A DNA stretch of 64,000 nt from Candidatus Multivoradales bacterium (GCA_965223855.1 CBDCXM010000009.1:32001-96000); one strand, 5' to 3'; shown: positions 11,613-42,232, counted from the stretch's first letter. The notes: generated by a model not told the origin, from the letters alone. Translations and numbers: made by a program.

Positions 11613-14600
11613 GCGTTCACGACCACCAGGACAGCTCCGAGACGCCGCCGGTGACTTCCGGCGCGCGCAAGGATCTCGATCTCGCCGAGGTGAGAGAGCG
11701 GCTTGCCGGCTCGAACGGCAAGCTCTACTGGCGAAGCCTCGAAGAGGTCGCCGAGACCCCCGAGTTCACCGAGATGATCCACCGCGAGTTCCCGCAGCTC
11801 GCGAGCGAGTGGGGCGAGGACGAAGGGGGCGTCAACCGCCGCCGTTTCCTTCAGCTGATGAGCGCCTCGGTCGCTTTCGGAGGGCTCACCGCCTGCACCC
11901 GCCAGCCGGACGAGAAGATCGTCCCCTGGGTGTCGCAGCCGGAGCAGCTGGTTCCGGGTCGGCCTCTCTACTTCGCGACGGCGATGGACTTCGACGGCTG
12001 GGCGGTGCCGCTGCTGGCGGAGAGCCACGACGGCCGGCCGACCAAGATCGAGGGCAACCCGGAGCATGCCGCCAGCCGCGGCGCGACCGACCTTTTCGCC
12101 CAGGCTTCGGTGCTCGATCTCTACGATCCCGACCGGCTGCAGACCGTCAGCGAGCTCGGCCGGATCCGCACCTGGAGCGCCTTCGCCGGGCGGATCGCCG
12201 AGAAGACCGCCGCGCTCGAGGGAACGCGCGGGCTCGGCCTCCGAATCCTCAGCGGACCGGTCACCTCCCCTACCGTTCGCCGGCTGATCGCCGACGTTCT
12301 CGACACCCACGGCTCGCGCGCCCGCTGGCACCAGTACTCCCCGCTGCGCTCAACCGCCGCCGTCGAGGCCGGACGCGCCGCCTGGGGCGGCGACTTCGTG
12401 CTTCGCCACAACTTCTCGAAGGCGGAGCGGGTGGTGTCGCTCGATGCCGACTTCCTCGGCTCCGGGCCGGCCGCCGTGGCCGACGCCCGCGCCTTCACGA
12501 GCCGGCGCAGGGCGCGCGCAGGCAGCACCGACCTCAACCGTCTCTACGTCTTCGAGTCGACTCCGACCCCGACCGGCAGCCTCGCCGATCACCGCGTGGC
12601 CATGTCGAGCGCCGAGCTCGCGCACTTCGCCGCCGAGCTCGCCGACGCGGTCGGCGGCGCGAGTGTCGCCGACGAGCGGGCGACGGCGGTGGCCGCGGAT
12701 CTCCGGGCTCACCGGGGCCGCTCGGTGGTGGTCGCCGGCGAGCACACGCCGGAAGCGGTGCAGCACCTCGCCCATGCGATGAACGCCGCGCTCGGCAACG
12801 TCGGCGAAACGGTGCTGCTGCGCGCCGCCGAAGAGGGCGAGCTGGTGGCCGGCGCCGACTCGCTCGCCGAACTGGTCGCCGACATCGACGCCGGCGACGT
12901 CGACCTGCTGCTGATCCTCGGCGGCAACCCCACCTACTCCGCGCCCGCCGACCTCGACCTGCCGGCGGCGCTCCAGAAGGTGCCGCAGTGCGTCTACCTC
13001 GGCTCGCACGACGACGAGACGGCGCAGTACTGCCACTGGAACCTGCCGGCCGCCCACTACCTCGAGAGCTGGGGCGACGGCCTCGCCGTCGATGGCACAC
13101 CGACCCTCACCCAGCCGCTCATCGAGCCGCTCTACGGGGGCCGCTCGGCGGCCGAGGTGCTGTCGATCTTCACCGCCGACGGCGAGCGCCCGGGCGACGA
13201 GCTGGTGCAGGACACCTGGCGCAGCCGCGTCTCCGGTGACTTCGACACCGCCTGGCGCAAGGCGCTCCACGACGGCTTCCTCAAGGTGGACGGCGCCGCT
13301 CCGGACGCCGTGCAGGCCGCGACGGGCGCCGCGGGCGCCGCCGCAGCGGCACGGTCGCTCGACACCGCGGCGCTCGAGATCGCCTTCCGGCCCGATCCGA
13401 CGGTGCTCGACGGCCGCTACGCCAACAACGGCTGGCTCCAGGAGTGCCCCAAGCCGTTCACCAAGCTGACCTGGGACAACGCCCTGCTCGTGGCGCCGTC
13501 GCGGGCCGAGGCGCTCGGCGTCGGGAGCGAGGACCTGGTGACGGTGACGGTCGAGGGTCGCACCCTCGAAGTGCCGGTCTGGGTTCACCCCGGACAGGCG
13601 GACCACACCGTGACCCTCCATCTCGGCTACGGGCGCTCGCGCACCGGCCGGGTCGGCACAGGCACCGGCTTCGACGCCGGGCGCCTGCGCACCGCCTCCG
13701 CCCTCTTCTCGGCACCGTGCGAGGTCGTGAAGAGCGGCGGCCAGTACGAGCTCGCCTCGACGCAACTCCACGACAACATCGCCCACGACCGCTTCCAGGG
13801 CGACAACCTCGAGGGGCGCACCGCCGAGAAGCGGCACCTGATCCGCGAAGCGACGGTCGACGAGTTCGAGGCGCATCCCGACTTCCCGCATCACCACGGT
13901 CACGGCATCGACGAGAGTCTGTCGATGATGCCGGGCTACGACTATTCCGATGGCCACGCGTGGGGGATGTCGGTCGACCTCGGCGCCTGCACGAGTTGCA
14001 ACGCCTGCGTCGTCGCCTGCCAGTCGGAGAACAACATCCCGGTCGTCGGCAAGGAAGAGGTGGCCAAAGGGCGGGAGATGCACTGGATCCGCATCGACCG
14101 CTACTACCAGGGCGAGCTGGAGGATCCGGCGCTTCATCACCAGCCGGTGATGTGCATGCACTGCGAGCAGGCGCCGTGCGAGGTCGTCTGCCCGGTGGCG
14201 GCGACGGTGCACAGCGACGAGGGGCTCAACGACATGGTGTACAACCGCTGTGTCGGCACCCGCTACTGCGCCAACAACTGCCCGTACAAGGTGCGGCGGT
14301 TCAACTTCTTCAAGTACAGCGACACCGAGACCGAGTCGCTCAAGCTGCAGCGCAACCCCGACGTCACGGTGCGCACGCGCGGCGTGATGGAGAAGTGCTC
14401 GTACTGCGTGCAGCGCATCTCGAAGGCGGGGATCGAAGCGCGCAAGGAAGACCGTCGCGTGCGCGACGGCGAGGTCGTCACCGCCTGCCAGCAGGCATGC
14501 CCGACCGAGGCGATCGTCTTCGGCGACCTCAACGATCCGGAGTCGCGGGTCGCCCGCCGCAAGGCGCAGCCGCACGACTACGGCATCCTGACCGAGCTGG

Positions 14601-14704
14601 GAACGCGGCCGCGCACCACCTACCTGGCCAAGGTGACGAACCCGAACCCGCAGTGGCCGGGTGCGGACTCCGCCCACGGCGCCTCGGAGAACGGCCATGG
14701 CTGA
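11609..14704 (+). CDS. actB: Alternative complex III subunit B (molybdopterin-oxidoreductase-like plus Fe-S)
   Basis: ATGA overlap. YWRSLEE...NRRRFLQLM Tat-variant leader. [35 protein letters not shown]. Confidence 0.93.
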
Positions 14705-16082
14705 TCTCAATCCCGAGAGCCGCATGGGCAAGCCGCCGGTGGTCGCCGAAGGGCACACACCGGCGTCGGTCACCGACCAGATCAGCTCGATCGTCCTCGA
14801 GAAGACGCCGCGCTGGTGGTGGCTCGCCTTCGGCGCCTCGTTCGCCGTCATGCAGCTGCTGCTGCTCGGCCTCGTGGTGCTGGTGTTCAAGGGAGTCGGC
14901 ATCTGGGGAGTCAACAACCCGGTCGGCTGGGGCTTCGCGATCATCAACTTCGTCTGGTGGATCGGCATCGGCCACGCCGGGACGCTGATCTCGGCGATCC
15001 TGCTGCTGCTGCGCCAGGAGTGGCGAACCTCGATCAACCGTTTCGCCGAAGCGATGACGCTCTTTGCGGTCGCCTGTGCCGGCGTCTTCCCGCTGGTGCA
15101 CGTCGGCCGCCCGTGGCTCGCCTACTGGCTGCTGCCCTACCCGAACACCATGGCCCTGTGGCCGAACTTCCGCTCGCCGCTGATCTGGGACGTGTTCGCG
15201 GTGACGACCTACGCCACCGTGTCGGCGCTCTTCTGGTACGTCGGCCTGATCCCCGATCTCGGGACGCTGAGGGATCGCTCCAAGCGCCGCTGGAAGAAGA
15301 TCGTCTACGGCTTCGCCTCGATGGGCTGGCGCGGACACGCCGAGCACTGGCACAACTACGAGGTCGCCTACCTGCTGCTGGCCGGTCTGGCGACCCCACT
15401 GGTGGTCTCGGTGCACACGGTGGTGTCGTTCGACTTCGCCGTCGGGCAGATCCCCGGCTGGCACGCGACGATCTTCCCGCCCTACTTCGTCGCCGGCGCG
15501 GTGTTCGCCGGCTTCGCCATGGTGCTGACCCTGGCGATCCCGTTGCGCGAGGTCTTCGGCCTCAAGGACTTCATCACCATGCGCCACATCCAGAACATGG
15601 CGAAGGTGATGCTCACGACCGGTCTGATCGTCGGCTACGGCTACCTGGTCGAGATCTTCATGGCCTTCTACAGCGGCAATCAGTACGAGGAGTTCATGAT
15701 CCTCAACCGCATCCAGGGGCCGTACAAGATCCACTGGTGGGCTCTGCTTTTGTGCAACGTGCTGGCGCCGCAGCTGATCTGGTTGCGCAAGGTGCGCAAC
15801 TCGCCGTGGCTGGTCTTCCTGGTGGCGATGTTCGTCAACGTCGGCATGTGGCTCGAGCGCTTCGTCATCGTCGTCACCAGCCTGTCGCGCGACTTCCTGC
15901 CGTCATCGTGGGGCACCTACTCCGGCACCCGCTGGGACTGGGCGATCTACGTCGGCACGATCGGCCTCTTCTTCTCGCTGCTGTTCCTCTTCGTCCGCTT
16001 CCTGCCGATGATCTCGATCTTCGAGATGCGAACGATCCTCCCTGAGGCGAAGGAAGTGCAGAAGAAGGGAGGGGGTCACTGA
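14697..16082 (+). CDS. actC: Alternative complex III NrfD-family quinol-binding subunit
   Basis: [33 protein letters not shown]. Confidence 0.93.
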
Positions 16083-16636
16083 TGGCACGCTTCCGGACCG
16101 CCGAGGGCGAGAACCTCTACGGGCTGATGGCCGAGTACGACTCGCCCGAGAAGCTGATCGACGCCTGCCACGCGGCGCGCAAGGCGGGCTTCAAGCGGCT
16201 CGGCGCCTACACCCCCTATCCGATCGAAGAGGTGTGGGAGGCGATCGGCCACCACAAGTCGAAGCTGCCGCTGATCGTTCTGATCGGGGGGCTTGTCGGG
16301 GCCATCGGCGGCTTCATGCTCCAGTACTGGACCTCGGTCGAGGCCTACCCGATGAACATCGGTGGCCGGCCGTTCAACTCATGGGTCGCCTTCATCATCC
16401 CGGCGTTCGAGACCACGATCCTGTGCGCCGCGTTCGCCGCGGTGCTCGGGATGTTCGCGCTCAACGGGCTGCCGCAGCCCTACCACCCCGCCTTCAACGT
16501 CGAGCGCTTTGCCGAGGCGTCGCGCGACCGCTACTTCCTGCTCATCACGACCAAGGATCCGGACTTCGACCCCGCGCGCGCGCGCGAGGTGCTCGAGGGG
16601 ACGGAGCCTACGGAGGTGAACGAAGTTGAGGAGTAG
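16082..16636 (+). CDS. actD: Alternative complex III subunit D (DUF3341)
   Basis: AYTPYPI, YPMNIGGRPFNSWVAFIIPAFE, NGLPQPYHP. Confidence 0.9.
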   Translation: MARFRTAEGENLYGLMAEYDSPEKLIDACHAARKAGFKRLGAYTPYPIEEVWEAIGHHKSKLPLIVLIGGLVGAIGGFMLQYWTSVEAYPMNIGGRPFNSWVAFIIPAFETTILCAAFAAVLGMFALNGLPQPYHPAFNVERFAEASRDRYFLLITTKDPDFDPARAREVLEGTEPTEVNEVEE

Positions 16637-17228
16637 GGAGTTCGGAGGCGGGAGGCTCAGGAGCGAGGCTGCGCTGGCGCTCGTGGCGCTTTTCGCCCTC
16701 GTCGGCTGCCGGCAGGACATGCACGACCAGCCGCGACTCGAGCCGTACGAGGTGAGCGACTTCTTCGCCGACGGTGTCGGTGCGCGGCTTCCCGTCGAGG
16801 GGACCGTCGCCCGCGGCTGGCTGCGCGAAGACGACCACCTCTACCGCGGCATCGGCGACGACGGCAGCTTCGCCACCGAGGCTCCGATGGCCGTCGATCG
16901 GGCACTCCTCGAACGCGGCCGCGAGCGCTACGACATCTTCTGCTCGCCGTGCCACGGTCGGGTCGGCGACGGCCGCGGCATGATCGTCCAGCGCGGCTTC
17001 AAACAGCCGAACTCGTTCCACGACGAAAGGCTCCGCTCGATGCCGATCGGCTACTTCTTCGACGTCCAGACGAACGGCTTCGGCGAGATGTCGAGTTACT
17101 CCGCCCAGGTACCGGTCGCCGACCGCTGGGCGATCGCCGCCTACGTCCACGCGCTGCAGCTGAGCCAGAACGTCGCCGCCGTCGATCTGTCGGCCGCCGA
17201 CCGCGAGGCGCTGGAGGAGTCGCGATGA
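16626..17228 (+). CDS. actE: Alternative complex III monoheme cytochrome c lipoprotein
   Basis: Lipobox LVGC followed by RQDMHDQP, heme motif CSPCH, DRWAIAAY. Confidence 0.9.
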   Translation: MRSREFGGGRLRSEAALALVALFALVGCRQDMHDQPRLEPYEVSDFFADGVGARLPVEGTVARGWLREDDHLYRGIGDDGSFATEAPMAVDRALLERGRERYDIFCSPCHGRVGDGRGMIVQRGFKQPNSFHDERLRSMPIGYFFDVQTNGFGEMSSYSAQVPVADRWAIAAYVHALQLSQNVAAVDLSAADREALEESR

Positions 17229-18406
17229 GTCACGAATTCGCGCCGCCTACCCGCGACCTCAAGGGCCTCGAGCGCAAGGCGTGGATCGTCGGCCTCGCCG
17301 CTTCGGCGGCGACGGTGCTGGGACTCTTTGTCGATCGCACCCAGTTCTTCCGCTCCTACCACGTCGCCTGGCTCTTCTGGCTCGGCCTGGCGCTCGGCTG
17401 CTTCGCCGTCGCCCTGCTCCACCAGCTGACCCGCGGCGCCTGGGGACTGATGATCCGCCGCGTCCTCGGCGCAGCGACCCGCACCCTCCCCTGGCTGCTG
17501 CTCGGCTTCGCGCCGATCATTTTCGGGATGGAGGAGATCTTCTCGTGGGCGCGGCCCGAGGCGGTCAACGACCCGCTGGTGCAGCACAAGGCCTGGTGGC
17601 TCAACGAACGCGGCTTCATCGTCCGCGGGGTGATCTACTTCGCCGTCTGGCTGCTGCCCGCCTGGGCGCTCAACCGGATGTCTCTCATCCAGGACGAGCG
17701 GCCGAGCGACAAACTGTTCGGGCGGATGCAGGCGATTGCGGCGCCGGCGCTCGTCGCCTACGTGCTGGTCGCCACGCTCGCCTCGGTCGACTGGCTGATG
17801 TCGCTCGACCCGCACTGGTACTCGAGTCTCTTCGGAGTCGCCTACGTCATCGGCCACGGGGTGGCGGCGTTCGCCTTCGCCATCCTGGTGGCGCTCTACC
17901 TCTCGAACCGGCCGCCGCTCTCCGGCAAGCTCGAACCGAAGCACTTCCACGACTACGGCAAGCTGCTGCTGGCGTTCGTGATGCTGTGGACCTACATGCA
18001 GCTCTCGCAGCTCATCATCATCTGGTCGGGCAACCTGCCGGAAGAGGTGACCTTCTACCTGAACCGCACCGAGGGAGGGTGGAAGTACCTCTCACTCTCC
18101 CTCGTCTTCCTGCACTTCGCGTTGCCGTTCGTACTGCTCCTGTCGCGGGACCTCAAACGCGACGCCCGGAAGCTCGCCCGTGTGGCGATCCTGCTGCTGG
18201 TGATGCGCTGGTTCGACCTCTACTGGCTGGCCGCACCCGCGTGGGGGCACGGTGCCGGGAGTCACGGGCTCCACTTCCACTGGCTCGACGTCACCGCGGT
18301 GGTCGGCCTCGGCGGCCTGTGGCTCGGCCTGTTCTTCCGCGAGCTGGGCAAGCGGCCGATGCTGCCGGCGTTCGAACCGTTCCTCAAGGAGGCGCTCGAT
18401 CGATGA
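17225..18406 (+). CDS. actF: Alternative complex III membrane subunit F
   Basis: ATG 17225. DWLMSLDPHWYSS, HDYGKLLLAFVMLWTY, IIWSGNLPEE. Confidence 0.9.
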   Translation: MSHEFAPPTRDLKGLERKAWIVGLAASAATVLGLFVDRTQFFRSYHVAWLFWLGLALGCFAVALLHQLTRGAWGLMIRRVLGAATRTLPWLLLGFAPIIFGMEEIFSWARPEAVNDPLVQHKAWWLNERGFIVRGVIYFAVWLLPAWALNRMSLIQDERPSDKLFGRMQAIAAPALVAYVLVATLASVDWLMSLDPHWYSSLFGVAYVIGHGVAAFAFAILVALYLSNRPPLSGKLEPKHFHDYGKLLLAFVMLWTYMQLSQLIIIWSGNLPEEVTFYLNRTEGGWKYLSLSLVFLHFALPFVLLLSRDLKRDARKLARVAILLLVMRWFDLYWLAAPAWGHGAGSHGLHFHWLDVTAVVGLGGLWLGLFFRELGKRPMLPAFEPFLKEALDR

Positions 18407-18795
18407 ACGAGCACCTCGACCGCGAACTCAATCTCAAGGCGATCGTCGGCTTCGCCGTCGGCCTCGTCGTGGTGACCGCCGTGAGTGCGGCGCTGATGTG
18501 GGGGCTCTCCGTCCTCCTGCGCGGCATGGAAGAGGCGAAGGACCCGCCGCCTCCAGCGCTCGCCGCGGCCGCGGAGGCATACCAGCCGCCGGAGCCGCGC
18601 CTCCAGACCGATCCGGAGCTCGAGCTCGTCGAGCTGCGCGCGCGCGAGCAGTCGGTGCTCGACGGCTACGGCTGGGTCGATCGCGACGGTGGCATCGCCC
18701 GAGTGCCGATCGACCGCGCGATCGAGATGATCACCGGTGAGCCGGCAGCGCCCGCCGACCCGAAGGCCGTCGAGGACGAGGGAGGGCACCACTGA
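18403..18795 (+). CDS. actG: Alternative complex III subunit G-like single-TM protein
   Basis: One TM, PPEPRLQ, GYGWVD...RVPIDRAI, positioned between actF and the SCO gene. Confidence 0.75.
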   Translation: MNEHLDRELNLKAIVGFAVGLVVVTAVSAALMWGLSVLLRGMEEAKDPPPPALAAAAEAYQPPEPRLQTDPELELVELRAREQSVLDGYGWVDRDGGIARVPIDRAIEMITGEPAAPADPKAVEDEGGHH

Positions 18796-19607
18796 TGCGC
18801 CGCAGCCTCGTCCTCGCCGTCCTGATCGCCGCGCTGCCGTGGACCGCGACCGCCCAGGTCCAGAACAACACCCTGCCGGCCGCGCTCGAAGGGGTCGCGT
18901 TCGAACAACGGCTCGGCGACGGTCTGCCGCTCGACGCAGAGTTCATCGACGCCTCCGGACGGACCGTGGCGCTGGGAGACTACTTCGGCGAGCGTCCGGT
19001 GGTCATCGCGCTCGTCTATTACGAGTGCCCGATGCTGTGCAATCTGGTGCTCAACGGCCTCGTCGCCTCGCTGCGAGCGGTCGACTTCGACCCGGGGAGC
19101 GAGTTCGACGTCATCGCGGTGTCGTTCGACCCGCGGGAGAAGGCGGCACTCGCCGCCTCGAAGAAGGCCAACTACGTCGAGAGCTACGGCCGCGAAGGCA
19201 CCGAAGACGGCTGGCACTTCCTCACCGGCGACGAGGTCTCGATCGCCCGGCTGACCGAAGCGGTCGGCTTCTCCTACCGCTTCGACGACGTGAGCGAGGA
19301 GTTCGCCCATTCCGCCGGCATCGTCGTCGCGACGCCCGACGGCAGGGTGGCGCGCTACTTCTACGGCGTCGAGTATCCGCCCCGCGATCTGAGGCTCGGC
19401 CTCGTCGAGGCTTCCGAGAACACCATCGGATCGTTCGCCGATCAGGTGCTCCTCTACTGCTTCCACTACGACGCGGTCGCCGGCCGCTACAGCTTCGCCA
19501 CCCTGACCGCGGTGCGGATCGGCGGCGTGCTCACCGTCCTCACCCTCCTGACCTTCCTCTTCACGCAGCTCCGCCGCGAGCGCGCAACCATGGCTCCGGG
19601 TCACTAG
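18795..19607 (+). CDS. SCO1/SenC-family copper chaperone
   Basis: YYECPMLC, WHFLTG, FAHSAG. Confidence 0.9.
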   Translation: MRRSLVLAVLIAALPWTATAQVQNNTLPAALEGVAFEQRLGDGLPLDAEFIDASGRTVALGDYFGERPVVIALVYYECPMLCNLVLNGLVASLRAVDFDPGSEFDVIAVSFDPREKAALAASKKANYVESYGREGTEDGWHFLTGDEVSIARLTEAVGFSYRFDDVSEEFAHSAGIVVATPDGRVARYFYGVEYPPRDLRLGLVEASENTIGSFADQVLLYCFHYDAVAGRYSFATLTAVRIGGVLTVLTLLTFLFTQLRRERATMAPGH

Positions 19608-19619
19608 CTTCGGTCTGAC

Positions 19620-20617
19620 ATGAAACTCGGCTTCCCCCTCTTCCCCGACAGCGCGTCGACCCTGGCACCCCAGGTCGATGCGATCTACTTCTTCGGGCTG
19701 ACGATCGCGGCGGTGTTCTCGCTGCTGATCGCCGCGGCGATCTTCTACCTCGCCCTGAAGTACCGCCGCTCGCCCGACAACCCTGTCGGCCAGCGCGAGC
19801 GCGCCGGCCTGCTGCTCGAGATCACCTGGTCGGTGATCCCGTTCGCCATCATGCTGGTGATGTTCGGTTGGGGCGCCAAGGTGTTCTTCACCGCGATCCG
19901 ACCGCCCGCCGACGCCACCGAGTACTACGTCACCGGCAAGCAGTGGATGTGGAAGTTCCAGCACCCCGAGGGGCGCCGCGAGATCAACACGCTGCACGTG
20001 CCGGTCGGTCAGCCGATCAAGCTGATCATGACTTCCGAAGACGTCATTCACTCCTTCTTCGTCCCGGCCTTCCGCTCCAAGATGGACGTACTGCCCGGCC
20101 GCTACACGAGCTTCTGGTTCGAGGCGACCGAGCCCGGCACCTACGACCTCTTCTGCGCCGAGTACTGCGGCGCCGAGCACTCCCTGATGGGCGGCTCGAT
20201 CGTCGTCATGGAGCCGGCCGAGTACGAGGCGTGGCTCGCCGACGACAGCGGTGACACACCGCGGCTCGCCTCCGGGGCGGATCTCTTCACCGCCAAGGCG
20301 TGCGGCACCTGCCATCGGCCGGACACCAACCTCCAGGGGCCGGATCTCACCGGCATCTTCGGCACCGAAGTCGCGCTCGCGAACGGCGACACCGTGGAGG
20401 TCGACGAGGACTACCTGCGCGAGTCGATCCTCGAGCCGGCGGAGAAGATCGTGCTGGGCTACCAGCCGCTGATGCCGACCTACAAGGGGCAGCTCAGCGA
20501 GGAAGAGCTGATGCAGCTCATCATCTACATCAAGTCCCTCGCGGACGAGCAGGAGGGTGACGCCCGGGCCGAAAGCGACGACGCCGGCGCCGAGGCGGTC
20601 ACCGACGAGGCGGCACC

Positions 20618-20621
<4 letters not shown>
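19620..20621 (+). CDS. coxB: Cytochrome c oxidase subunit II with fused cytochrome c (caa3)
   Basis: DVIHSF, CuA motif [13 protein letters not shown]-terminal CGTCH. Confidence 0.95.
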
Positions 20622-22263
<1,642 letters not shown>

Positions 22264-22267
<4 letters not shown>

Positions 22268-22947
22268 GCGTCGCGGCGCAAGGGAAGGCAGGCGGCAAGA
22301 AGAGCCGTGCGTGGGGGCTCGCCCACCACTTCGAGAGCTTCGCCCAGCAGCAGGAGGCGTCGTTCTTCGGCATGTGGCTGTTCCTGGTGCAGGAGATCCT
22401 CTTCTTCGGCGGCCTCTTCACCGCCTACATCGTCTACCGCACCTCGCACCCGGAGGCGTTCGCCCTCGGCAGCCACGAGCTCGACATCCAGCTCGGCGCG
22501 ATCAACACCGCGGTGCTGATCGGCTCGTCGCTCACGATGGCGCTCGCGGTGTGGGCGGCGCAGGTGGGGAAGAACAAGGCGATCGTCCTCTTCATCATCC
22601 TCACCATCCTGCTCGGCGGGGTGTTCCTCGGCATCAAGACCGTGGAGTACAGCCACAAGTGGCACGAGCACCACGTCCCCGGACCCAACTTCGAGTGGGA
22701 CGGCCCGGAAGCGCCTAACGTCCACATGTTCTTCAACCTCTACTTCGCGATGACGGGGCTCCACGCCCTCCACATGGTCGTCGGCATGGTGATTCTCGTC
22801 GTCATCGCGATCTGGGCGTGGCGCGGAGCGTTCACCCCCGAGAACCACAACCTGGTCGAGGGGATGGGGCTCTACTGGCACTTCGTCGACATCGTGTGGA
22901 TCTTCCTCTTCCCGCTGCTCTACCTGCTGGGAAGGAGCGGCGCATGA
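22264..22947 (+). CDS. coxC: Cytochrome c oxidase subunit III
   Basis: [25 protein letters not shown]. Confidence 0.94.
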
Positions 22948-24334: not shown

Positions 24335-24946
24335 TCAGGCGCGGTTGCGGTAGAGGTCCGGATCAACGATCGAGGCCATCGCCCGAACATCCAGATCCCG
24401 CCCGACGAACTCCGCCAGCTTCCTGGCGTGCCCCTCCGGATCCGCGATCACTTCGCGATACGGGAAGAAGAGCACCTCCATGTGCGGCGAGTGCTTCAGG
24501 TGGTAGTTCGCCTTCCACAGATCCGCCTCGAAGAACTCCTTCATCGAGGCGTCGTCGCTCCCCGACTCTTCGCCCCGCCGCTCCAGCATCTTCGCCTGCG
24601 ACGCCAACACCTCGTCGATCTCGCGCCGCATGAAGACCACCTTGTAGTTGTGGTTCGACGGGAGATGCCGCAGGAGATAGGAGATGATCTTGATCGCCTT
24701 GCCTCGCCCCTCGCGGAGCCACTCCTTGTCGACCTCCTTCGCGAGATCGAGCACCCGGTCGTCCTCGTAGTACCCCTTCGGATTGTCCTCGTCCGCGGTG
24801 CGATTGCCGTCGGTGACGGGGGTCATCCCACCCGCCTCGAGCATCTTCATCGCCATCGACGTGCCAGAGCGCGGCAGCCCGGAGACGACGACGATCGGCT
24901 CGCCGTAGAGACGGCGACGGAACCACTTTGCGAGCTTGCTCGGCAC
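24335..24946 (-). CDS. PAPS-dependent sulfotransferase-family protein
   Basis: 5'-PSB loop VVSGLPRSGTSMAM, NPKGYYE, 3'-PB-like FMRR...VLASQ. GTG 24946 is the likely start. Confidence 0.85.
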   Translation of the reverse strand: MPSKLAKWFRRRLYGEPIVVVSGLPRSGTSMAMKMLEAGGMTPVTDGNRTADEDNPKGYYEDDRVLDLAKEVDKEWLREGRGKAIKIISYLLRHLPSNHNYKVVFMRREIDEVLASQAKMLERRGEESGSDDASMKEFFEADLWKANYHLKHSPHMEVLFFPYREVIADPEGHARKLAEFVGRDLDVRAMASIVDPDLYRNRA

Positions 24947-25137
24947 GTTGGAGAACCTCTCGGTAGGGGATGTGCGGGGATGGACGCGCCCGATGATGGG
25001 GCGGCTTTGGACGCGGCGATAGGATAGTATGCAGCGCGTTCGGGAGCCAGTCCCACGCCGCGCCGGCATGGGGCCTCGCAGCCCGAAACCACTCCGGCAC
25101 TGCCCCTCACTACCCCAGCAGACAGCCAATCCTCTTC

Positions 25138-27357
25138 ATGGTCGGACAAGGAATCTCTGTGCAGCGACGCATCGCGCAAGCGGTCGCTCGGACGACGCTC
25201 GTGGCGGCGGCCCTGGCCTTCGCCGGGCCGGCAGCGGCCTACGTCGGGCCCGGCGCCGGGTTCGCGATGGCGACCTCGATCGGGGTCGTCTTCTTCACCG
25301 TCATCATCGCGGTGCTCGCGGTGCTCACCTGGCCGTTCCGCATGGTGTGGCGGCTCATCCGCCGACCGGCGAAGCCCAACGCACGAGTGCGACGCCTCAT
25401 TTTCCTCGGCCTCGACGGCCAGGACCCGAGGCTGACCGAGAAGTGGATGGCCGAGGGCAAGCTCCCCAACTTCTCGCGCCTCGCCGAACTCGGCTGCTAC
25501 CACCGCCTGCAGTCGACCTACCCGTCGATCTCGCCGGTCGCCTGGTCTTCGTTCGCCACCGGCGTGCAGCCGGCCAAGCACAATATCTTCGACTTCCTGA
25601 GCCGCGACCGCGGAAGCTACCTGCCGCTCCTCTCCTCGACGTCGATCGAGACGATCGAGCGCCGCGGAGCCGCGCTTCTCAGGAAGCTGCGCCTCGGCAA
25701 GTACCGCTTCCCGGTGGAGAAGGCGCAGATCCGGATGCTTCGCAAGGCGAAGCCCTACTGGACGATTCTCGGTGAGCACTACATCTGGTCGACCGTCCTC
25801 CGCGTGCCGATCACCTTCCCGCCCGATCGTTTCTACGGCGCCCAGCTCGGGGCGATGTCGATCCCCGACCTGCTGGGCACCCAGGGGACCTTCGTCCTCT
25901 TCACCAACCGCCCGGCGGAAGGTGAGTTCAAGGAGGGGGGCATCCGCGTCGCTCTCGAAGACTCGGGCAATCCGAACGGGGGAGATCGTTTCGAGGCGAA
26001 GCTGGAAGGCCCCGAGAACGCCTTCCTCGACGGCGAGCCGCCGCTCGAGCTGCCGGTGGCGATCACGCTCGATCGCTCCGCCGGCAAAGCGACGGTCGAG
26101 ATCGGCGACGAGGAGATGGTGCTCGGAGTCGGCGAGCTCTCCGACTGGGTGAGCCTCGAGTTCCCCGCCGCGCCGACCGTCAAGGTGTCGGCGCTGGCGC
26201 GCATCCAGATCACCGAAATGGACGAGTTCGTCTCGCTCTACGTCACGCCGCTCAACATCGCCCCCGAGAATCCGGCGATGCCGATCTCGCACCCCGACTA
26301 CTACGCAAACTACCTGGCGAAGAAGATCGGTCCCTACTCGACCCTCGGCCTCGCCGAGGACACCTGGGCGCTCAACGAGGACGTGACCGACGACGCGACC
26401 TTCCTCCAGCAGAGCTACGACATCGACAAGGAGCGCGAGGAGATGTTCTTCGCCGCGCTCGATCGACTCAACAAGGGCTCGCTCGTGTGCGTCTTCGACG
26501 GCACCGACCGGATCCAGCACATGTTCTGGCGCTACATGGAGGAGGGGCATCCAGCCGCCGAAGGGCGCGATCCGGGCGAGCATGCCGACGCGATCGAGGA
26601 CCTCTACCGACACAACGACGCCCTCCTTGGCCGGACGATGAAGAAGCTGCGCAAGGGCGACCTGCTGTTCGTGCTCTCCGACCACGGCTTCACTTCGTTC
26701 CGCCGCGGCGTCAACGTCAACGCCTGGCTGCTCGAGCACGGCTACCTGCATCTCAAGGAAGGCGCCGACGGCTCGAGCGAGTGGCTCGCCGACGTCGACT
26801 GGTCCCGCACCCGCGCCTACAGCCTGGGTCTCGCCGGGATGTATCTGAACATCGAAGGCCGCGAGGCGCATGGCATCGTCAAACCGGGAGCCGAGGCGCA
26901 GGCGCTCAAGGACGAGCTGGTCGAGAAGCTCAGTGGGCTCGAGGACTCGGAGAAAGCCGACGTCGGCATCACCGAGCTGTTCGATACCTCCAAGCTCTAC
27001 TCCGGCCCTTATCTCGGCAATGCTCCGGACCTCCTCTTCGGCTTCAACGGCGGCTACCGCACCTCCTGGGACTGCGCCACCGGCGTCGTCTCCGGGCCGG
27101 TGTTCGACGACAACACCAAGGCGTGGAGCGGCGATCACTGCGTCGACCCCCGCCAGGTGCCGGGCGTGATGTTCTGCAACTTCCCCATCGACGACGAAGA
27201 TCCCTACCTGATGGACATGGCGCCAACCGCGCTGTCGCTCTTCGGCATCGACCCGCCGGCCCACATGGACGGCAAGTCGCTGTTCTCGAAGGAGCGGGAG
27301 TTCGATCCCGCGCGCGGCGCGGAGACGAAGCCGGTTGCCGAAGGAGCCGCCTCGTGA
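25138..27357 (+). CDS. Alkaline-phosphatase-superfamily (NPP-like) enzyme with signal peptide plus TM anchor
   Basis: LGLDG, STYPSISPVAWSSFATG, DRIQH, SDHGF, WSGDH. N-terminal AAA/YVGPGAG followed by a TM. The start may be GTG 25159. Confidence 0.88.
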   Translation: MVGQGISVQRRIAQAVARTTLVAAALAFAGPAAAYVGPGAGFAMATSIGVVFFTVIIAVLAVLTWPFRMVWRLIRRPAKPNARVRRLIFLGLDGQDPRLTEKWMAEGKLPNFSRLAELGCYHRLQSTYPSISPVAWSSFATGVQPAKHNIFDFLSRDRGSYLPLLSSTSIETIERRGAALLRKLRLGKYRFPVEKAQIRMLRKAKPYWTILGEHYIWSTVLRVPITFPPDRFYGAQLGAMSIPDLLGTQGTFVLFTNRPAEGEFKEGGIRVALEDSGNPNGGDRFEAKLEGPENAFLDGEPPLELPVAITLDRSAGKATVEIGDEEMVLGVGELSDWVSLEFPAAPTVKVSALARIQITEMDEFVSLYVTPLNIAPENPAMPISHPDYYANYLAKKIGPYSTLGLAEDTWALNEDVTDDATFLQQSYDIDKEREEMFFAALDRLNKGSLVCVFDGTDRIQHMFWRYMEEGHPAAEGRDPGEHADAIEDLYRHNDALLGRTMKKLRKGDLLFVLSDHGFTSFRRGVNVNAWLLEHGYLHLKEGADGSSEWLADVDWSRTRAYSLGLAGMYLNIEGREAHGIVKPGAEAQALKDELVEKLSGLEDSEKADVGITELFDTSKLYSGPYLGNAPDLLFGFNGGYRTSWDCATGVVSGPVFDDNTKAWSGDHCVDPRQVPGVMFCNFPIDDEDPYLMDMAPTALSLFGIDPPAHMDGKSLFSKEREFDPARGAETKPVAEGAAS

Positions 27358-29306
27358 CCCGCCGCATCGGCATCGCGGCGCTCCTGCTGGCGGCCCTCGT
27401 CGGCCTCGGCGGCTGCAGCGACGGTCATCGGGTCACCGGCAAGCAGGTGGTCGTCATCGGCGTCGACGGCATGGACTGGAACTACACCCAGCAGATGATC
27501 GCCGACGGTCGGATGCCGACCTTCGCGCGCCTCGAGCGCGAGGGCTCGGCGGCGCCGCTCGGCACGTCGATCCCGCCGCTCTCGCCGATCGCCTGGTCGA
27601 ACTTCATGACCGGCACCGACTCCGGCCACCACGGCATCTTCGACTTCCTCCACCGCGACCCGGAGAGCTACTTCCCCACTTCTTCGCTTGCCAAGTCGGA
27701 GCAGGGCGAGCCAGGCCCGTGCCTCGGCAAGTACCGGCTGCCGGCCGACGGCACCTTCGAGATGCTCCGCCGCGGCGACCCGTTCTGGAAGCCGCTCGAG
27801 GAGACCGGCGTCGAGTCCTGGATCCTCAGAATGCCGGTCAACTTCCCGCCGTCGGGCTACGCCACCCGCGAGCTCTCCGGCATGGGCACACCCGACCTCA
27901 CCGGGTCGCTGGGCGAGTTCTCGTTCTTCACCTCGGCGCTCTTCTACGACGATGTCGGCTCGGGCGGCAAGGTCTACCCGCTCGACCTGTGGGAGGACCG
28001 CGCCGAGGGCGAGCTCGTCGGTCCGGAGAACATCTACCTGTGCGAGCCGGAGAAGACCCGGGTGCCGCTCGTCGTCTACTTCGACCCCGCCGAACCGGTC
28101 GCCAAGGTCGTCATCGGCGAGGAGGAGACGATCCTCAACGTCGGTGAATGGAGCGACTGGGTGCCGATCTCCTTCGAGCTGGCACCGACGCAGTCGCTCA
28201 ACGCCAAGGCGCGGCTCTACCTGCGCGCCGTCCGGCCCGAGGTCGAGCTCTACGTGACGCCGCTCCAGATCGACCCGATGGCGCCGATCATGCCGATCTC
28301 GACCCCGGCCGACTTCGCCGCCGAGCTCGCCGAGGCGACCGGCGGCTACTACACCCAGGGGATGCCGGAGGACACCAAGACCGCGACCGAGGAGCTGTTC
28401 TCGATCGACGAGTTCCTCGCCCAGGCGCGGATCGCCGGCATCGAGCTCGAAGAGCAGTTCGACTACCTGCTCGACGAGTTCGAGGACGGGTTGCTCTTCT
28501 ACTACTTCGGCAACCTCGACCAGGTGTCGCACATCATGTTCGGCATGACCGATCCGGAGCATCCGATCTACGACGAGGTCACCGCCGCCAAGTACGCGGG
28601 CGTCGTGCCGGAGCTCTACGAGCGCGCCGACCGCATGGTCGAGCTGGCGATGGAAAAGCTCCCCGAGGCGACGATCGTCGTGATGTCGGACCACGGCTTC
28701 TCGAGCTGGCGCCGGTCGATGAATCTCAACTCGTGGCTGCGCGACGAGGGGTACCTGGTCCTCAAGGACCCGTCGCTCACCAAGGACCCCGGCCTCTTCC
28801 GCAACGTCGACTGGGCGCGAACGCGCGCCTACGGAGTCGGCTTCAACGGCCTTTACATCAACGAGCGGGGGCGGGAGAGCCAGGGGATCGTCGACCCCGA
28901 AGACGCCGACGCGCTCCTGGCCGAGATCGGCGACAAGCTGCTGGCGACCCTCGACCCCAAGTCCGGCACCCCGGCCGTGACCCAGGTCTACCCGGCGGCC
29001 GAGACGTTCCAGGACGGCCCGGGCCTGCTCGTAGGCCCCGACATGATCGTCGGCTACGCGCTCGGGACCAAGGGCTCCTCCGACGGCGCTCTCGGCGAGA
29101 TCGAGCCGGAGGTCTTCAGCGACAACACGAGCGCCTGGACCGGCGACCACAGCATGGACCACGACGCGGTGCCGGGCATTCTCTTCACCAACAAACCGCT
29201 GTCGAAGCCGGCCCCGACCCTGATCGACCTCGCTGCCGCCGTGGTGGCTGAGTTCGGGCTCGAGCGGTTTCCGGTCGACGTCGACGGCGGCGCGGCACAG
29301 CAGTAG
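27354..29306 (+). CDS. Alkaline-phosphatase-superfamily (NPP-like) lipoprotein, paralog of the upstream gene
   Basis: GTGA overlap. Lipobox LGGC. IGVDG, TSIPPLSPIAWSNFMTG, DQVSH, SDHGF, WTGDH. Confidence 0.88.
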   Translation: MTRRIGIAALLLAALVGLGGCSDGHRVTGKQVVVIGVDGMDWNYTQQMIADGRMPTFARLEREGSAAPLGTSIPPLSPIAWSNFMTGTDSGHHGIFDFLHRDPESYFPTSSLAKSEQGEPGPCLGKYRLPADGTFEMLRRGDPFWKPLEETGVESWILRMPVNFPPSGYATRELSGMGTPDLTGSLGEFSFFTSALFYDDVGSGGKVYPLDLWEDRAEGELVGPENIYLCEPEKTRVPLVVYFDPAEPVAKVVIGEEETILNVGEWSDWVPISFELAPTQSLNAKARLYLRAVRPEVELYVTPLQIDPMAPIMPISTPADFAAELAEATGGYYTQGMPEDTKTATEELFSIDEFLAQARIAGIELEEQFDYLLDEFEDGLLFYYFGNLDQVSHIMFGMTDPEHPIYDEVTAAKYAGVVPELYERADRMVELAMEKLPEATIVVMSDHGFSSWRRSMNLNSWLRDEGYLVLKDPSLTKDPGLFRNVDWARTRAYGVGFNGLYINERGRESQGIVDPEDADALLAEIGDKLLATLDPKSGTPAVTQVYPAAETFQDGPGLLVGPDMIVGYALGTKGSSDGALGEIEPEVFSDNTSAWTGDHSMDHDAVPGILFTNKPLSKPAPTLIDLAAAVVAEFGLERFPVDVDGGAAQQ

Positions 29307-29315
29307 GAGGCAGTC

Positions 29316-29519
29316 ATGTTCGGAGGCGGCAAGATCAAACTCGACAAGGAGCTGATGGAGAAGGTGACGCGCATCGCCGCGATCGCCGGCTACTCCTCAC
29401 CGACCGAGTTCATCACTCACGCGCTCGAGAAGGAGCTGGCGAAGATCGAGGGTGAGGGCGAGGCTCTCTCCGAGGAAGAGATCAAGAAGCGGCTCCAGGG
29501 GCTCGGCTACATCTCGTAG
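29316..29519 (+). CDS. Small ribbon-helix-helix (CopG-like) protein with C-terminal LxxLGY
   Basis: AGGAGG RBS. KIKLDKELMEKV...GYSSPTEFITHALEKEL, ending EEEIKKRLQGLGYIS. Confidence 0.75.
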   Translation: MFGGGKIKLDKELMEKVTRIAAIAGYSSPTEFITHALEKELAKIEGEGEALSEEEIKKRLQGLGYIS

Positions 29520-29555
29520 GCGGTCGGCACCGGAACTCGGCGACACGACGACACC

Positions 29556-30374
29556 ATGGAAGCGATCAACGCACTGCTGCGCTCGGCCCTCGATGCCTTC
29601 TGGGGTCTGTTGGGCGGCCTGCCCGACTGGGTCGGGCTGACCGTGCTCGCCTTCCTGGTGACGCTGCTGATCCTGCCGGTCATCCGCTGGACCTTCAACT
29701 ACGACCTCGCGGAGCGCTTCAAGCGGGGTATCTACTCGGGCCTCTTCGAGATTCGCCTCTTCAACGACCGCCTCGGCGCGACCTTCCGCGGCCTGTTCGA
29801 TGTGCTCCGCAACACCGCCGCCTACATGGGGGCGTGGCTGCTGCCGCTCGTCGTCATGTCGATCCCGATGCTGCCGGTCTTCGCCCATCTGCACTTCCAC
29901 TACGGCTACGACGGGCTCGAGCCGGGCGCCTCGACGGTGCTGCGCGCCGAGTTCGCCGAAGACCGCGAGACGGGAAAGCCGGTCGCCTCGATCGACGTGC
30001 CGGAAGGGGTGTCGGTCGACACCCCCGCACTGTGGGTCGCGGCCCAGCGCGAGCTGAGCTGGCGGCTGTCGGCCGAGACCCCGGGCGAGTACGAGGTGCG
30101 GCTCTCGATCGACGGCGAGAGTTATACCAAGAGCGTCGTCGTCTCCGACCAGAGCACCCGGCGCTCGCCCCTGCGGCCACGCCAAAGCTTCTTCGACCAG
30201 CTGATCTACCCCGCCGAGCCGCCGCTGCCCGCCGGCAGCCCGCTCGAGCGCATCACCGTCGAGTACCCGGAGAAGTCGAGCGTCCTGATGGTGCCGACCT
30301 GGTGCTGGATCCTGATCCTGCTCTCGATCCCGTTCTTCCTGCTCCTCAAGGGCAGGTTCGGGGTCGAGGTCTGA
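29556..30374 (+). CDS. Three-TM membrane protein resembling DUF106/EMC3/TMCO1 (Oxa1 superfamily), with an inserted beta-rich domain
   Basis: Amphipathic N-helix, TM1, helical loop, TM2 LLPLVVMSIPMLPVF, beta-rich domain, TM3 WCWILILLS..FFLLLKGRFG. Confidence 0.55.
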   Translation: MEAINALLRSALDAFWGLLGGLPDWVGLTVLAFLVTLLILPVIRWTFNYDLAERFKRGIYSGLFEIRLFNDRLGATFRGLFDVLRNTAAYMGAWLLPLVVMSIPMLPVFAHLHFHYGYDGLEPGASTVLRAEFAEDRETGKPVASIDVPEGVSVDTPALWVAAQRELSWRLSAETPGEYEVRLSIDGESYTKSVVVSDQSTRRSPLRPRQSFFDQLIYPAEPPLPAGSPLERITVEYPEKSSVLMVPTWCWILILLSIPFFLLLKGRFGVEV

Positions 30375-38857: not shown

Positions 38858-41110
38858 TCAACGCTTCGGCCGCGGCTTCGCAGGTAGATACGGCTCAGGC
38901 CACGGATGGTCCCATTGCTCGTAACGCTCGGCGGCGTGGAGGGTCAGGTACGGGTCGTGAAGGTGCGGGCGCGCCATCACCGCCAGATCGGCGCGGCCGG
39001 CAGCCAGCACCGTGTTGGCGTGGTCGGCGCCGAGGAGCGCTCCGACGGCCGCCACCGGCACCCCGGCCTCGTAGCGGATGCGCTCGGCGAACGGCACCTG
39101 GTACATCCGCCCATAGACGATGTCCGACTCCGCGACGTTGCCTCCGGAGGAGACGTCGATGAGCGCGCACCCTTCGGCGGCGAGAGCACGGGCGATCTCC
39201 ACCGCCTCGTCGGCGGTCGTCCCGCTGCCGTCGTCCATCCAGTCGCTGGCGGAGATGCGCACGATCATCGGTCTGGCCGCGGGCCAGGCGTCGCGCATCG
39301 CGCGGAACACCTCCAGGGGATAGCGAAGCCGCGCCTCGAGCGAGCCGCCGTAGGCATCGGTGCGCCGGTTCGTGAGCGGCGACAGGAAGCTCGACAGCAG
39401 ATAGCCGTGCGCCATGTGCACCTCGACGAGATCGAATCCGGCCTCGTCGGCCCGCCGGGTGGAATCGACGAACGCCTCGCGCACCCGGTCCATGTCGTCG
39501 CGGTCCATCTCCTTCGGTATCGGCCAGTCGGGGCGAAACGGGATCGCCGACGGGGCGAGCGTCTGCCAACCGCGCCCTTGCGGCAGGGGAACGTCCTCCC
39601 CTTCCCACGGGTGAGAGACCGAGCCTTTCCGACCGGCATGCGCGAGTTGGATGCCGATCTTCGCGTTCGAGTGTTCGTGGACGAAGTCGACGATCCGGCG
39701 CCAGGCGGCGGTGTGATCCGAGCGGTAGAGGCCGGCGCAGCCGGGCGTGATCCTCCCGTCCGCCGAGACGTCGGTCATCTCGGTGATCACGAGACCGGCA
39801 CCGCCGACGGCGCGGCTGCCGAGATGCACGAGATGCCAGTCGCCGACCGTGCCGTCGGTCGCCGAGTACTGGCACATGGGACTCACGACGATGCGGTTGG
39901 CGAGCGGCAGGCCGCCGAGGTCGTACGGGGTGAAAATCGGCGGCCGGAAGCGGCCCTCGCCGTCCCGCTCACCACCCTCGCGAGCCGCGTACGCCCGGTC
40001 CACACTTTCGATCAGCGCCGGATCGCGGCGCCCGAGGTTGTCGTAGGTGATCTGCTTCGAGCGCGTCATCAGGTTGAAGGTGAAGGTCACCGGATCCTGG
40101 TCGAGGTAGCGAGCCGAGTTCTCGAACCACTCGAGACTGGTCTGCGCCGCCTTCTGGGTCTTGATCACGTCGACCCAGCGTGCCTCCCGGTAGGCGCCCA
40201 GCGCGGCGGCGACGTCGTCCGGCGTCGCCGCGAACGCCTCCGCCAGCGCCACGGCGTCCTCCATCGCCAGCTTCGTACCCGAGCCGATCGAGAAGTGCGC
40301 CGTGTGGGCCGCATCGCCGATCAGCACGACATTCTCGTGGACCCACTGTTCGCACTTCACCGTCGGGAAGGTGCGCCACAACGAGCGGTTCGTCAGCAGC
40401 CGATACCCGTCCAGCTCGTCGGCGAACAGCCGCTCGCAGAACTCCACCGTCTGCTGCTCGGTGGCGTCCTCGAGCCCCGCCTCCCGCCACACTTCTTCCC
40501 GGCACTCGACGATCCAGGTCGCCAGCTCGTCCGAGAACGGGTAGGCGTGGACCTGGAAGAGGCCCGCGTCGTGCTGCTTGAAGTGGAAGGTGAACGCGTC
40601 GAGCGGCTTGTCGGTACCGAGCCAGGTGAATTTGCAACGCCGCCAGTCGAGCGCCGGGCGGAAGTGCTCGGCGAGCTGCTCGCGCACCCACGAATTGACA
40701 CCGTCCGCACCGACCACCAGGTCGTATCCGGAGAAGGCGTCGAGACTCGTCAACTCGCACCCGAAGACGAGCTCCACCCCGACCTCGCGGCAGCGCCGCT
40801 GGAGGATCAGGAGCAGCTCCTTTCGCGACAACGCCGCGAATCCGTGCCCGGTCGAGACGACCCGCTCGCCGCCGACGAAGGTCTCGATGTCGCGCCAGTA
40901 GCGGAAGCGTGACGTGATCGCCGCGAAGCTCTCGCCATCGGCGCGCTCGAAGTTGTCGAGCGTCTCGTCGGAGAACACCACCCCCCAGCCGAAGGTGTCG
41001 TCCGGCTGGTTGCGTTCCACCACCCGCACCTCGGCTCGAGGCTGCTGCTTCCTGAGGAGCAGCGAGAAGTAGAGCCCGGCGGGGCCGCCGCCGACGACGA
41101 GGACCTTCAA
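38858..41110 (-). CDS. Bifunctional anthraniloyl/salicylyl-CoA monooxygenase-reductase (AbmA-like)
   Basis: GGGPAGLY, TFGWGVVFSD, GDAAHTAHFSIGSGTKLAMEDA fused to an OYE domain (SPMCQYSA, HMAHGYLLSSFLSP). TTG 41110 start. Confidence 0.92.
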   Translation of the reverse strand: MKVLVVGGGPAGLYFSLLLRKQQPRAEVRVVERNQPDDTFGWGVVFSDETLDNFERADGESFAAITSRFRYWRDIETFVGGERVVSTGHGFAALSRKELLLILQRRCREVGVELVFGCELTSLDAFSGYDLVVGADGVNSWVREQLAEHFRPALDWRRCKFTWLGTDKPLDAFTFHFKQHDAGLFQVHAYPFSDELATWIVECREEVWREAGLEDATEQQTVEFCERLFADELDGYRLLTNRSLWRTFPTVKCEQWVHENVVLIGDAAHTAHFSIGSGTKLAMEDAVALAEAFAATPDDVAAALGAYREARWVDVIKTQKAAQTSLEWFENSARYLDQDPVTFTFNLMTRSKQITYDNLGRRDPALIESVDRAYAAREGGERDGEGRFRPPIFTPYDLGGLPLANRIVVSPMCQYSATDGTVGDWHLVHLGSRAVGGAGLVITEMTDVSADGRITPGCAGLYRSDHTAAWRRIVDFVHEHSNAKIGIQLAHAGRKGSVSHPWEGEDVPLPQGRGWQTLAPSAIPFRPDWPIPKEMDRDDMDRVREAFVDSTRRADEAGFDLVEVHMAHGYLLSSFLSPLTNRRTDAYGGSLEARLRYPLEVFRAMRDAWPAARPMIVRISASDWMDDGSGTTADEAVEIARALAAEGCALIDVSSGGNVAESDIVYGRMYQVPFAERIRYEAGVPVAAVGALLGADHANTVLAAGRADLAVMARPHLHDPYLTLHAAERYEQWDHPWPEPYLPAKPRPKR

Positions 41111-41117
41111 GCCACCC

Positions 41118-41966: not shown

Positions 41967-42232
41967 GATGGCGGGAGTGTACAGCGGGATGACGAGGTCA
42001 AACCCGGCCGGTCATCTTCCAACCCGAAACGTCCCCGGAGCAGTCGAGATGCCCCAGACCGGTGCTCGGGCGAGCGGGGCGGGGAGAGCACTCGCCCTCC
42101 CCGCCAGACGGCGATGACTCATTGAAGCCGGTTTCGTCGCGTTGAGAGCAAGGGTCCGGCTTCTCCGGGGACCCGATTGAGAGCTCATCCGAGCCCGACG
42201 TCCGGCACAGAACTCAAGCAGAGGAATCGACC

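Follow-up and report, generated by a model that had tools for sequence, protein, structure and literature searches.

Whether and how bacteria sulfate molecules beyond the cytoplasmic membrane is a puzzle, because 3'-phosphoadenosine 5'-phosphosulfate (PAPS) is cytoplasmic. The question is raised by five genes at positions 24335–30374 of a 64,000-nt stretch of DNA (hereafter, the window) from Candidatus Multivoradales bacterium (GCA_965223855.1 CBDCXM010000009.1:32001-96000), which encode a sulfotransferase (SULT), two related enzymes (E1 and E2), a small ribbon-helix-helix (RHH)-like protein with a C-terminal L..LGY tail (RHH-LGY), and a membrane protein of the DUF106 type (MEM). We found that this arrangement is conserved far beyond chance, recurring in 80 examined loci and in 88 of 301 genomes of the phylum, and that its two enzymes, as read from their sequences, have the same active site and opposite predicted sidedness. 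No published description of such a module was found in the literature searched.

Gene arrangement and recurrence

The window has a G+C content of ~67% and therefore abundant long spurious frames, and the real genes were picked by codon-position G+C together with family scans. In agreement with an earlier note on this DNA, all five genes are in place, with the sulfotransferase divergent from a tight four-gene operon. SULT (24335–24946) lies on the minus strand, and the divergent intergenic region read from the sequence (24947–25137, the putative promoter region) separates it from E1 (25138–27357), E2 (27354–29306), RHH-LGY (29316–29519), and MEM (29556–30374), all on the plus strand. E1 and E2 overlap by 4 nt (GTGA), with the GTG start of E2 lying over the TGA of E1 and GAAGGAG upstream of that GTG, and the gaps that follow measure 9 nt (E2 to RHH-LGY) and 36 nt (RHH-LGY to MEM). 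The SULT end at 25129 that had been given earlier belongs to the longest TTG frame; the start of the conserved protein is GTG 24946, behind GAGAGG. The database gene call for E1 (P0121) starts 7 codons later than ours (GTG 25159). K-mer counts over 57 SULT-E1 intergenic regions revealed no conserved palindrome, the recurring elements being just GC-rich words and an AT-rich, -10-like word (8–9 of 57); a sigma-70 scan gave no match in 24947–25137, and a terminator scan was also unhelpful.

The locus sample comprised the best 80 of 187 MEM relatives and, because of this selection, leans to relatives of the query. The record titles of these loci name Acidobacteriota classes, Gemmatimonadota, Methylomirabilota, Eiseniibacteriota, and two Gammaproteobacteria metagenome-assembled genomes. 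Counting the loci with enough upstream DNA to be informative, RHH-LGY was present in 76/76, E1 in 62/62, E2 in 51/62, and SULT in 56/61. In 11 loci MEM is followed by an EamA transporter gene. Nine of these belong to the 11 loci counted as E2-less; of the other two, L065 is also without E2, and L066 lacks the upstream DNA.

The second sample comprised 301 genomes of the phylum, with cut-offs of a best E ≤1e-230 for an E1-grade match and E ≤1e-20 for SULT. Overlaps between families were derived by hand from four tables, and the tallies include three genomes flagged as unpublished (G049, G024, and G152), on which alone no claim is made; no test statistic is given because related genomes are not independent. 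MEM was found in 88 genomes, as a single copy save for split or duplicated contigs in two of them (G060 and G106). E1-grade matches occurred in 85 genomes, 82 of which were MEM-positive (82/88). The three MEM-negative genomes with such a match (G175, G205, and G215) are 75–83% complete, and the six MEM-positive genomes without one have partial matches or are incomplete. SULT was present in 60/88 MEM-positive versus 13/213 MEM-negative genomes, and adenosine 5'-phosphosulfate (APS) kinase in 82/88 versus 103/213, with four of the six MEM-positive genomes that lack APS kinase being 55–81% complete. The co-occurrence of the families, named beforehand as a check on the earlier note's proposal, is thus seen in both samples.

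One variant layout was met in a closed genome (G112:C1:2347825-2351430), where the enzyme gene adjoining MEM matches the E1 profile from position 75 (E=8e-169), without the N-terminal hairpin described below, and SULT lies directly on the other side of MEM.

Two enzymes with one active site and opposite predicted sidedness

Both enzymes match PF01663 (96 bits for E1 and 113 bits for E2, against a cut-off of 23) and are 37% identical over 631 residues; they are paralogous members of the alkaline phosphatase (AP) superfamily, which is how the earlier note had described them. Its statement that both keep the metal ligands and a Ser at the nucleophile position was likewise confirmed in an alignment of 34 E1/E2 sequences, where D93, S132, H461, D515, H516, D666, and H667 are invariant and D457 is conserved in at least 90%. 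The motif at the nucleophile is PSISPVAW in E1 and PPLSPIAW in E2 (pattern PS[IL]SP[VI]AW), and profile alignment places S132 at the nucleophile position of the Xanthomonas nucleotide pyrophosphatase/phosphodiesterase (NPP) and of PhnA, where the deposited mutant chains have Ala.

E1 alone gave no match in the PDB at the sequence level. Its AF2 model (pLDDT 87.8), searched with Foldseek, matched Xanthomonas (Xac) NPP best (E=4e-11; target-normalised TM-score 0.60), followed by ENPP1, PhnA, SPAP, and PafA. The enzymes thus resemble the NPP/ENPP group (Xanthomonas NPP and ENPP1) and PhnA in fold (Foldseek E=4e-11 to 1e-8), in metal-ligand motifs, and in the position of the hydroxyl nucleophile, but they differ in having Ser for Thr and HNIFDF for HGIVHN. 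In the sequence alignment that gives this last difference, F153 stands at the position of the last Asn of the Xac NPP motif, which we take to contact the phosphoryl group, and D152 is invariant. Further differences are a beta-rich insertion of ~230 aa in the catalytic domain, found in none of NPP, ENPP1, PhnA, SPAP, and PafA, and, in E1, a membrane hairpin and a predicted cytoplasmic orientation. We rejected a reading of E1/E2 as formylglycine type I sulfatases, since C/S-x-P-x-R is absent and PS[IL]SP[VI]AW has no Arg. LtaS, EptA, and OpgB, AP-superfamily members of the PF00884 type, are periplasmic transferases that take an anionic head group from a membrane-bound donor. The likeness to them is a functional analogy only (an outward AP-superfamily enzyme with a hydroxyl nucleophile): E1 and E2 match PF01663 and not PF00884, they lack the multi-transmembrane N-domain, and a paralogue predicted to be cytoplasmic exists. 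COG3379-type NPP-like enzymes as a whole are abundant in soil and sediment metagenomes, with 7593 of 8000 scored candidates matched.

The earlier note had placed E1 towards the cytoplasm and E2 outside as a lipoprotein, and the N-termini of both families argue for this assignment. E1 begins with a signal-like segment, a turn (PAAA|YVGPGAG), a transmembrane helix, and a strongly basic tail, after which the catalytic domain follows. In 62 full open reading frames (ORFs) of E1, Y[IV]GPGAG is present in 62/62, small-x-small directly precedes its Tyr in 61/62, the spacing from Y[IV]GPGAG to GxDG is exactly 49 residues in 62/62, and the last 28 of these, up to the catalytic domain, average 8.5 K/R versus 0.1 D/E. 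Because of this succession of signal-like segment, turn, helix, and basic tail, the catalytic domain is predicted to be cytoplasmic, and by the positive-inside rule E1 would expose a very short turn to the periplasm, be anchored by a helix, and keep its enzyme domain in the cytoplasm. The hairpin is reminiscent of the M13 procoat/YidC/leader peptidase pathway (signal-like helix, short turn with small-x-small, anchor helix, basic cytoplasmic tail), but E1 carries a 650-aa enzyme domain that is predicted to be cytoplasmic. E2, by contrast, is predicted to be an exported lipoprotein: an N-terminal hydrophobic signal-like segment is present in 59/59 E2 sequences, and a lipobox-like Cys in 54/59 (52 by pattern, and L021 and L073 by eye), with a plain signal in the other five. 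In the window, the lipobox of E2 is LGGC.

A bacterial DUF106-type membrane protein

MEM of the window has no match in Pfam or NCBIfam (for PF01956, none at E ≤1), and weak PF01956 matches occur in 12 of 53 family members (best E=7.8e-4). The MEM family profile, on the other hand, matches MJ0480 (5c8j) with E=1.7e-8 over profile positions 10–122, which correspond to transmembrane helix 1 (TM1), a hairpin, and TM2, and found no YidC structure at E ≤10. The description of this protein as Oxa1/DUF106-like therefore stands, and MEM is by its profile match a true member of the DUF106/Oxa1 superfamily. Searching with the family returned 386 proteins at E ≤1e-3, some of them named 'DUF106 family' by JGI. 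The AF2 model of MEM (pLDDT 94) has helices at residues 24–46, 49–68, 73–93, 95–116, and 248–264, in the order TM1, cytoplasmic helical hairpin, TM2, inserted beta domain (about residues 120–240; residues 126–235 in the model), and TM3. Of 14 sequences aligned, 13 have K/R where TM1 ends on the cytoplasmic side. It is the sequence profile, not the fold searches, that makes the Oxa1 link. Foldseek with the model returned Ig-like matches alone (E ~1e-3), for the beta domain, and the VIA wide search gave mostly helical hairpins (Z<8); its sole match over all MEM helices was 7tut chain 8, presumably TMCO1, at a level too low for helical proteins (Z 7.0, 132 residues, rmsd 5.4).

MEM shares the TM1/hairpin/TM2/TM3 architecture with MJ0480/Ylp1, the DUF106 branch (EMC3, TMCO1, and Get1), and YidC. 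In contrast to MJ0480/Ylp1 and the DUF106 branch, it is bacterial, has an Ig-like domain between TM2 and TM3, and is a single-copy gene within an enzyme operon. In the available text of Anghel et al. 2017 (PMC5868721), DUF106 is given as archaeal and eukaryotic. Prediction of a complex between MEM and residues 1–90 of E1 scored 0.01 against a mark of 0.32, which counts neither for nor against contact. No MEM fusions were found among longer proteins, which is weak evidence; P0363, a candidate RHH-MEM fusion, was treated as an artefact because its middle resembles frameshifted sequence.

The RHH-LGY protein

RHH-LGY is a 67-aa protein whose Pfam scores fall below the thresholds (RHH_1, 17.9 versus 20.5 bits; PSK_trans_fac, 21.5 versus 28.3). 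The sequence pattern, K-[IV]-K-L-D followed by AGYSS and then a putative helix, would fit a ribbon-helix-helix (N-terminal strand, helix, G-x-S/T turn, helix), and the tail is the one that the earlier note had named LxxLGY. Six residues (K8, G25, L60, L63, G64, and Y65) are invariant in 28 RHH sequences, and because L60, L63, G64, and Y65 are among them, the tail can be regarded as the hallmark of the protein, which is ~70% identical across loci. In the ESM Atlas, the clusters closest to it carry the name CopG family (score 0.94). The family is large, with 1159 cluster representatives at E ≤1e-3, and most of the 150 listed are 60–70 aa long. Two of those 150 are fusions with PF01663 enzymes, P0380, an E1-type enzyme (hairpin, 44% identity) with a C-terminal RHH-LGY domain, and P0250, a second PF01663-RHH protein; together they are a lead, not proof. 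PutA and NikR have RHH domains joined to an enzyme or sensor, and P0380 similarly ties an RHH-like domain to an enzyme, whereas RHH-LGY is usually a free protein and is most conserved in its tail, not in its N-terminal strand.

The sulfotransferase

SULT is a small (~203 aa), predicted cytoplasmic protein that scores above the Pfam cut-offs for Sulfotransfer_3 (PF13469; 43 bits, cut-off 27) and Sulfotransfer_1 (PF00685; 29.3 bits, cut-off 22). The loop GLPRSGTS, R108, and S116 are invariant in 26/26 SULT sequences; we take the loop to bind the 5'-phosphosulfate, and R108 and S116 to be the 3'-phosphate-binding Arg and Ser. Profile matches to known enzymes are weak (TPST2 E=1.4e-3, over the loop alone; SULT1A E ~7e-3), and among solved structures the profile places TPST2 and TPST1 closest (E=1.4e-3 to 5.6e-3, again over the PAPS loop alone). 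By these motifs, SULT is a member of the PAPS-dependent sulfotransferase family and is predicted to transfer a sulfuryl group from PAPS. It has Pfam membership and PAPS-binding motifs in common with TPST and the cytosolic SULTs, but differs from them in its minimal size and its conserved partnership with a membrane module. PAPS-dependent sulfotransferases of bacteria include Stf0, NodH, and RaxST.

Link to activated sulfate

Neighbour families were obtained by clustering the flank ORFs of the 80 loci. The most frequent was a fused PAPS synthase (PUA_2, ATP-sulfurylase, and APS_kinase), present in 23/80 loci, on either side of the module and in both orientations, followed by PF00884 sulfatase-family proteins (19/80), CysQ-like Inositol_P proteins (12/80), GGDEF-EAL proteins (11/80), and EamA (11/80); the remaining families were rare and heterogeneous. 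In six E2-less loci (L022, L043, L046, L059, L061, and L067) the PAPS synthase gene follows SULT on the divergent strand; elsewhere it lies upstream on the operon strand or downstream of MEM. Other loci carry separate activation genes directly upstream of E1, so that the linkage to cysC/sat that the earlier note had looked for is present: cysQ-cysC-cysD-cysN in L023, and a sat-cysC-E3-E1 layout in L012 (with sat beyond the contig end), L031, L039, L062, and L093. E3 is a PF01663 paralogue that is soluble, ~430 aa long, and devoid of a signal peptide; it has Ser in the motif shared with E1 and E2, and it takes the place of SULT upstream of E1 in six sampled genomes without a SULT match. In L039-type loci the order is cysQ, a second RHH copy, sat, cysC, E3, and then E1. 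This second copy, 33–37% identical to RHH-LGY and with the same C-terminal tail, lies directly upstream of sat in L031, L039 (2161–2430), L062, and L093. L088 has cysD-cysN-E3-E1, and in L091 sat-E3-cysC-E3 precedes the module.

The presence of two unrelated ATP sulfurylase types in several arrangements points to a functional tie rather than one inherited accident. The link of the module to activated sulfate is therefore supported, by the co-occurrence of SULT and APS kinase and by Sat, CysDN, CysC, and CysQ genes adjoining it in varied layouts. Given this recurrent adjacency to genes that make or use activated sulfate, the module may handle a sulfated envelope or exported compound.

Some neighbouring proteins are unusual in themselves. 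In L091 (5175–7379), a 735-aa fusion of a class-V aminotransferase (NifS-like) with AIRS/AIRS_C (SelD/ThiL-like) is encoded between the sulfate-activation genes and E1. The PF00884 'sulfatase' proteins are ~760–860 aa long and often in tandem, after MEM in L051, L064, L073, L074, L015, and L023 and upstream in L060 and L077; these large proteins have the sulfatase domain mid-protein and mostly lack C/S-x-P-x-R, and the same cluster contains a few smaller true-sulfatase-like members with CSPSR or CAPTR. In a MEM-negative genome (L100, G221:C11:73500-93000), an SxtJ-like protein, a carbamoyltransferase, two PF01663 enzymes, an unassigned 605-aa protein, and a PF00884 protein are encoded in a co-directional row.

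A proposed mechanism and its rivals

How might these proteins act together? We tentatively propose that the five genes form one functional unit, with a constant core of E1, RHH-LGY, and MEM and with E2 usually present too, and we give this unit and the following mechanism, taken as a whole, somewhat less than an even chance. SULT would transfer sulfate from PAPS, in the cytoplasm, onto a membrane-associated or exported compound, whose anionic head group (of phosphoester or phosphosulfate type) would be processed or loaded by E1 at the inner face. The groove of MEM would help the head group to the outer face, where E2 would trim or transfer it, and RHH-LGY would regulate the operon or E1 itself. 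In the E2-less variant, the neighbouring EamA transporter might serve in place of MEM for passage of the head group. We thus infer, along the lines of the earlier note, a trans-membrane relay in which a group crosses the membrane with the aid of MEM and a sulfated or phosphosulfate head group is handled on both faces. YidC is termed an insertase and lipid scramblase in the abstract of PMC11997395. The proposal also has a stronger form, which we regard as unlikely: a dedicated extracytoplasmic sulfation system in bacteria of several phyla, in which SULT and/or E1 would load APS/PAPS-derived sulfate onto a membrane-bound carrier at the inner face, the DUF106 groove would act as a scramblase, and E2 would pass the sulfate to envelope or secreted acceptors.

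Several observations weigh against a relay. The active site of E1 and E2 (Ser and two-metal ligands in an NPP fold) is of the phosphoryl-transfer type, and no signature of sulfuryl transfer, including C/S-x-P-x-R, was seen in either enzyme. SULT and E2 are dispensable in some lineages: E2 is missing from 11/62 loci, and 28/88 module-bearing genomes gave no SULT match at E ≤1e-20. In some genomes SULT is far from the module (for example, 1.36 Mb in G069), and in the genome of the window itself APS kinase is ~1.9 Mb away. At some module loci, such as L083, no sulfate gene lies within the stretch examined, nor was a sulfate context seen for distant E-family paralogues in five MEM-negative genomes. 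Finally, no acceptor, lipid-carrier, or glycosyltransferase gene is conserved nearby in the neighbour families scanned, so the linkage to glycosyltransferases for which the earlier note had looked did not emerge.

The main rival, doubtful in our judgement but a serious one, dispenses with a relay. E3, E1, and E2 would be phosphodiesterases or pyrophosphatases that clear or regulate sulfonucleotides and the by-products of activation, namely 3'-phosphoadenosine 5'-phosphate (PAP), APS/PAPS, and pyrophosphate, inside and outside the cell, and MEM would be a private insertase that inserts or holds the E1 hairpin. The NPP fold and ligands fit such hydrolases, as do the soluble E3 encoded between or behind sat/cysDN and cysC and the occurrence of the module without SULT in the 28 genomes mentioned. 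The short translocated turn of the E1 hairpin would suit a private insertase, since the translocon-independent substrates of the DUF106-related family are characterised, in the available text of Anghel et al. 2017 (PMC5868721), as simple proteins with small translocated regions. However, hydrolysis alone does not account for the retention, in 51/62 loci, of an exported paralogue whose active site is identical, or for the conserved, predicted periplasmic Ig-like domain of MEM; CysQ-like genes also stand beside E3 in several loci, where a PAP-phosphatase role would be redundant.

Two further explanations are less probable still. Nutrient scavenging, in which E2 and its partners would free phosphate or sulfate from external esters and the sulfate-activation neighbours would reflect ordinary sulfur assimilation, agrees with the predicted export of E2, the PF00884 sulfatase-family proteins in 19/80 loci, and thioredoxin-like genes upstream of the module in L089 and L092. 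We consider it very unlikely, as the best-conserved enzyme of the module is E1 (~65% identity across classes), which is predicted to face the cytoplasm, the loci examined have no conserved transporter for sulfate or phosphate, and a sulfotransferase uses up PAPS without assimilating sulfur. There is only a slight chance that the target is instead a protein, with SULT sulfating a Tyr of a module member such as that in the RHH-LGY tail. The idea draws on TPST2 and TPST1 being the best solved relatives of SULT and on the invariance of Y65, but the TPST match is limited to the nucleotide loop, the RHH-LGY tail is basic and not acidic, and RHH-LGY is kept in genomes where SULT was not found.

Other genes in the window

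The operon is flanked by an alternative complex III and caa3 oxidase cluster, an SRPBCC gene, a benzoate-CoA-ligase-like gene, and a thioesterase gene. The ligase and thioesterase genes downstream recur only in the four closest relatives (L001–L004) and were therefore excluded from the unit, as were the upstream respiratory genes. The latter form a large co-directional cluster (10874–22947), in which a molybdopterin/4Fe-4S protein (1276 aa), NrfD-like, ActD, and cytochrome c genes make up alternative complex III, followed by SCO1/SenC and caa3-type oxidase subunits II (with a cytochrome c domain), I, and III. Old-yellow-enzyme-type (Oxidored_FMN) proteins are encoded at 38858–41149, where the domain is fused to a FAD_binding_3 monooxygenase-like domain, at 61973–63457, and in L003 (12791–15256); close relatives also encode such proteins near the CoA ligase and thioesterase. 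The window also has two very long frames, one of 1911 aa (42146–47881) whose sole Pfam matches are divergent InlB B-repeats (Flg_new_2), and one of 1497 aa (52821–57314) without a Pfam match. The G+C content falls to 0.61 at 50–52 kb.

Significance

The module places the same active site, as predicted, on both faces of the membrane and is tied to sulfate activation in many lineages. It also holds a bacterial member of an insertase branch that the available text of Anghel et al. 2017 (PMC5868721) gives from archaea and eukaryotes only. Even if its enzymes prove to be hydrolases, the module would give COG3379-type NPP-like enzymes a function and a bacterial DUF106 protein its client or partner, and the RHH-LGY family with its 1159 cluster representatives would stand. 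If dedicated extracytoplasmic sulfation is true, it would be the first such pathway in bacteria, and would assign a function to a bacterial DUF106 protein for the first time and add a new class of reaction to those of NPP-like enzymes.

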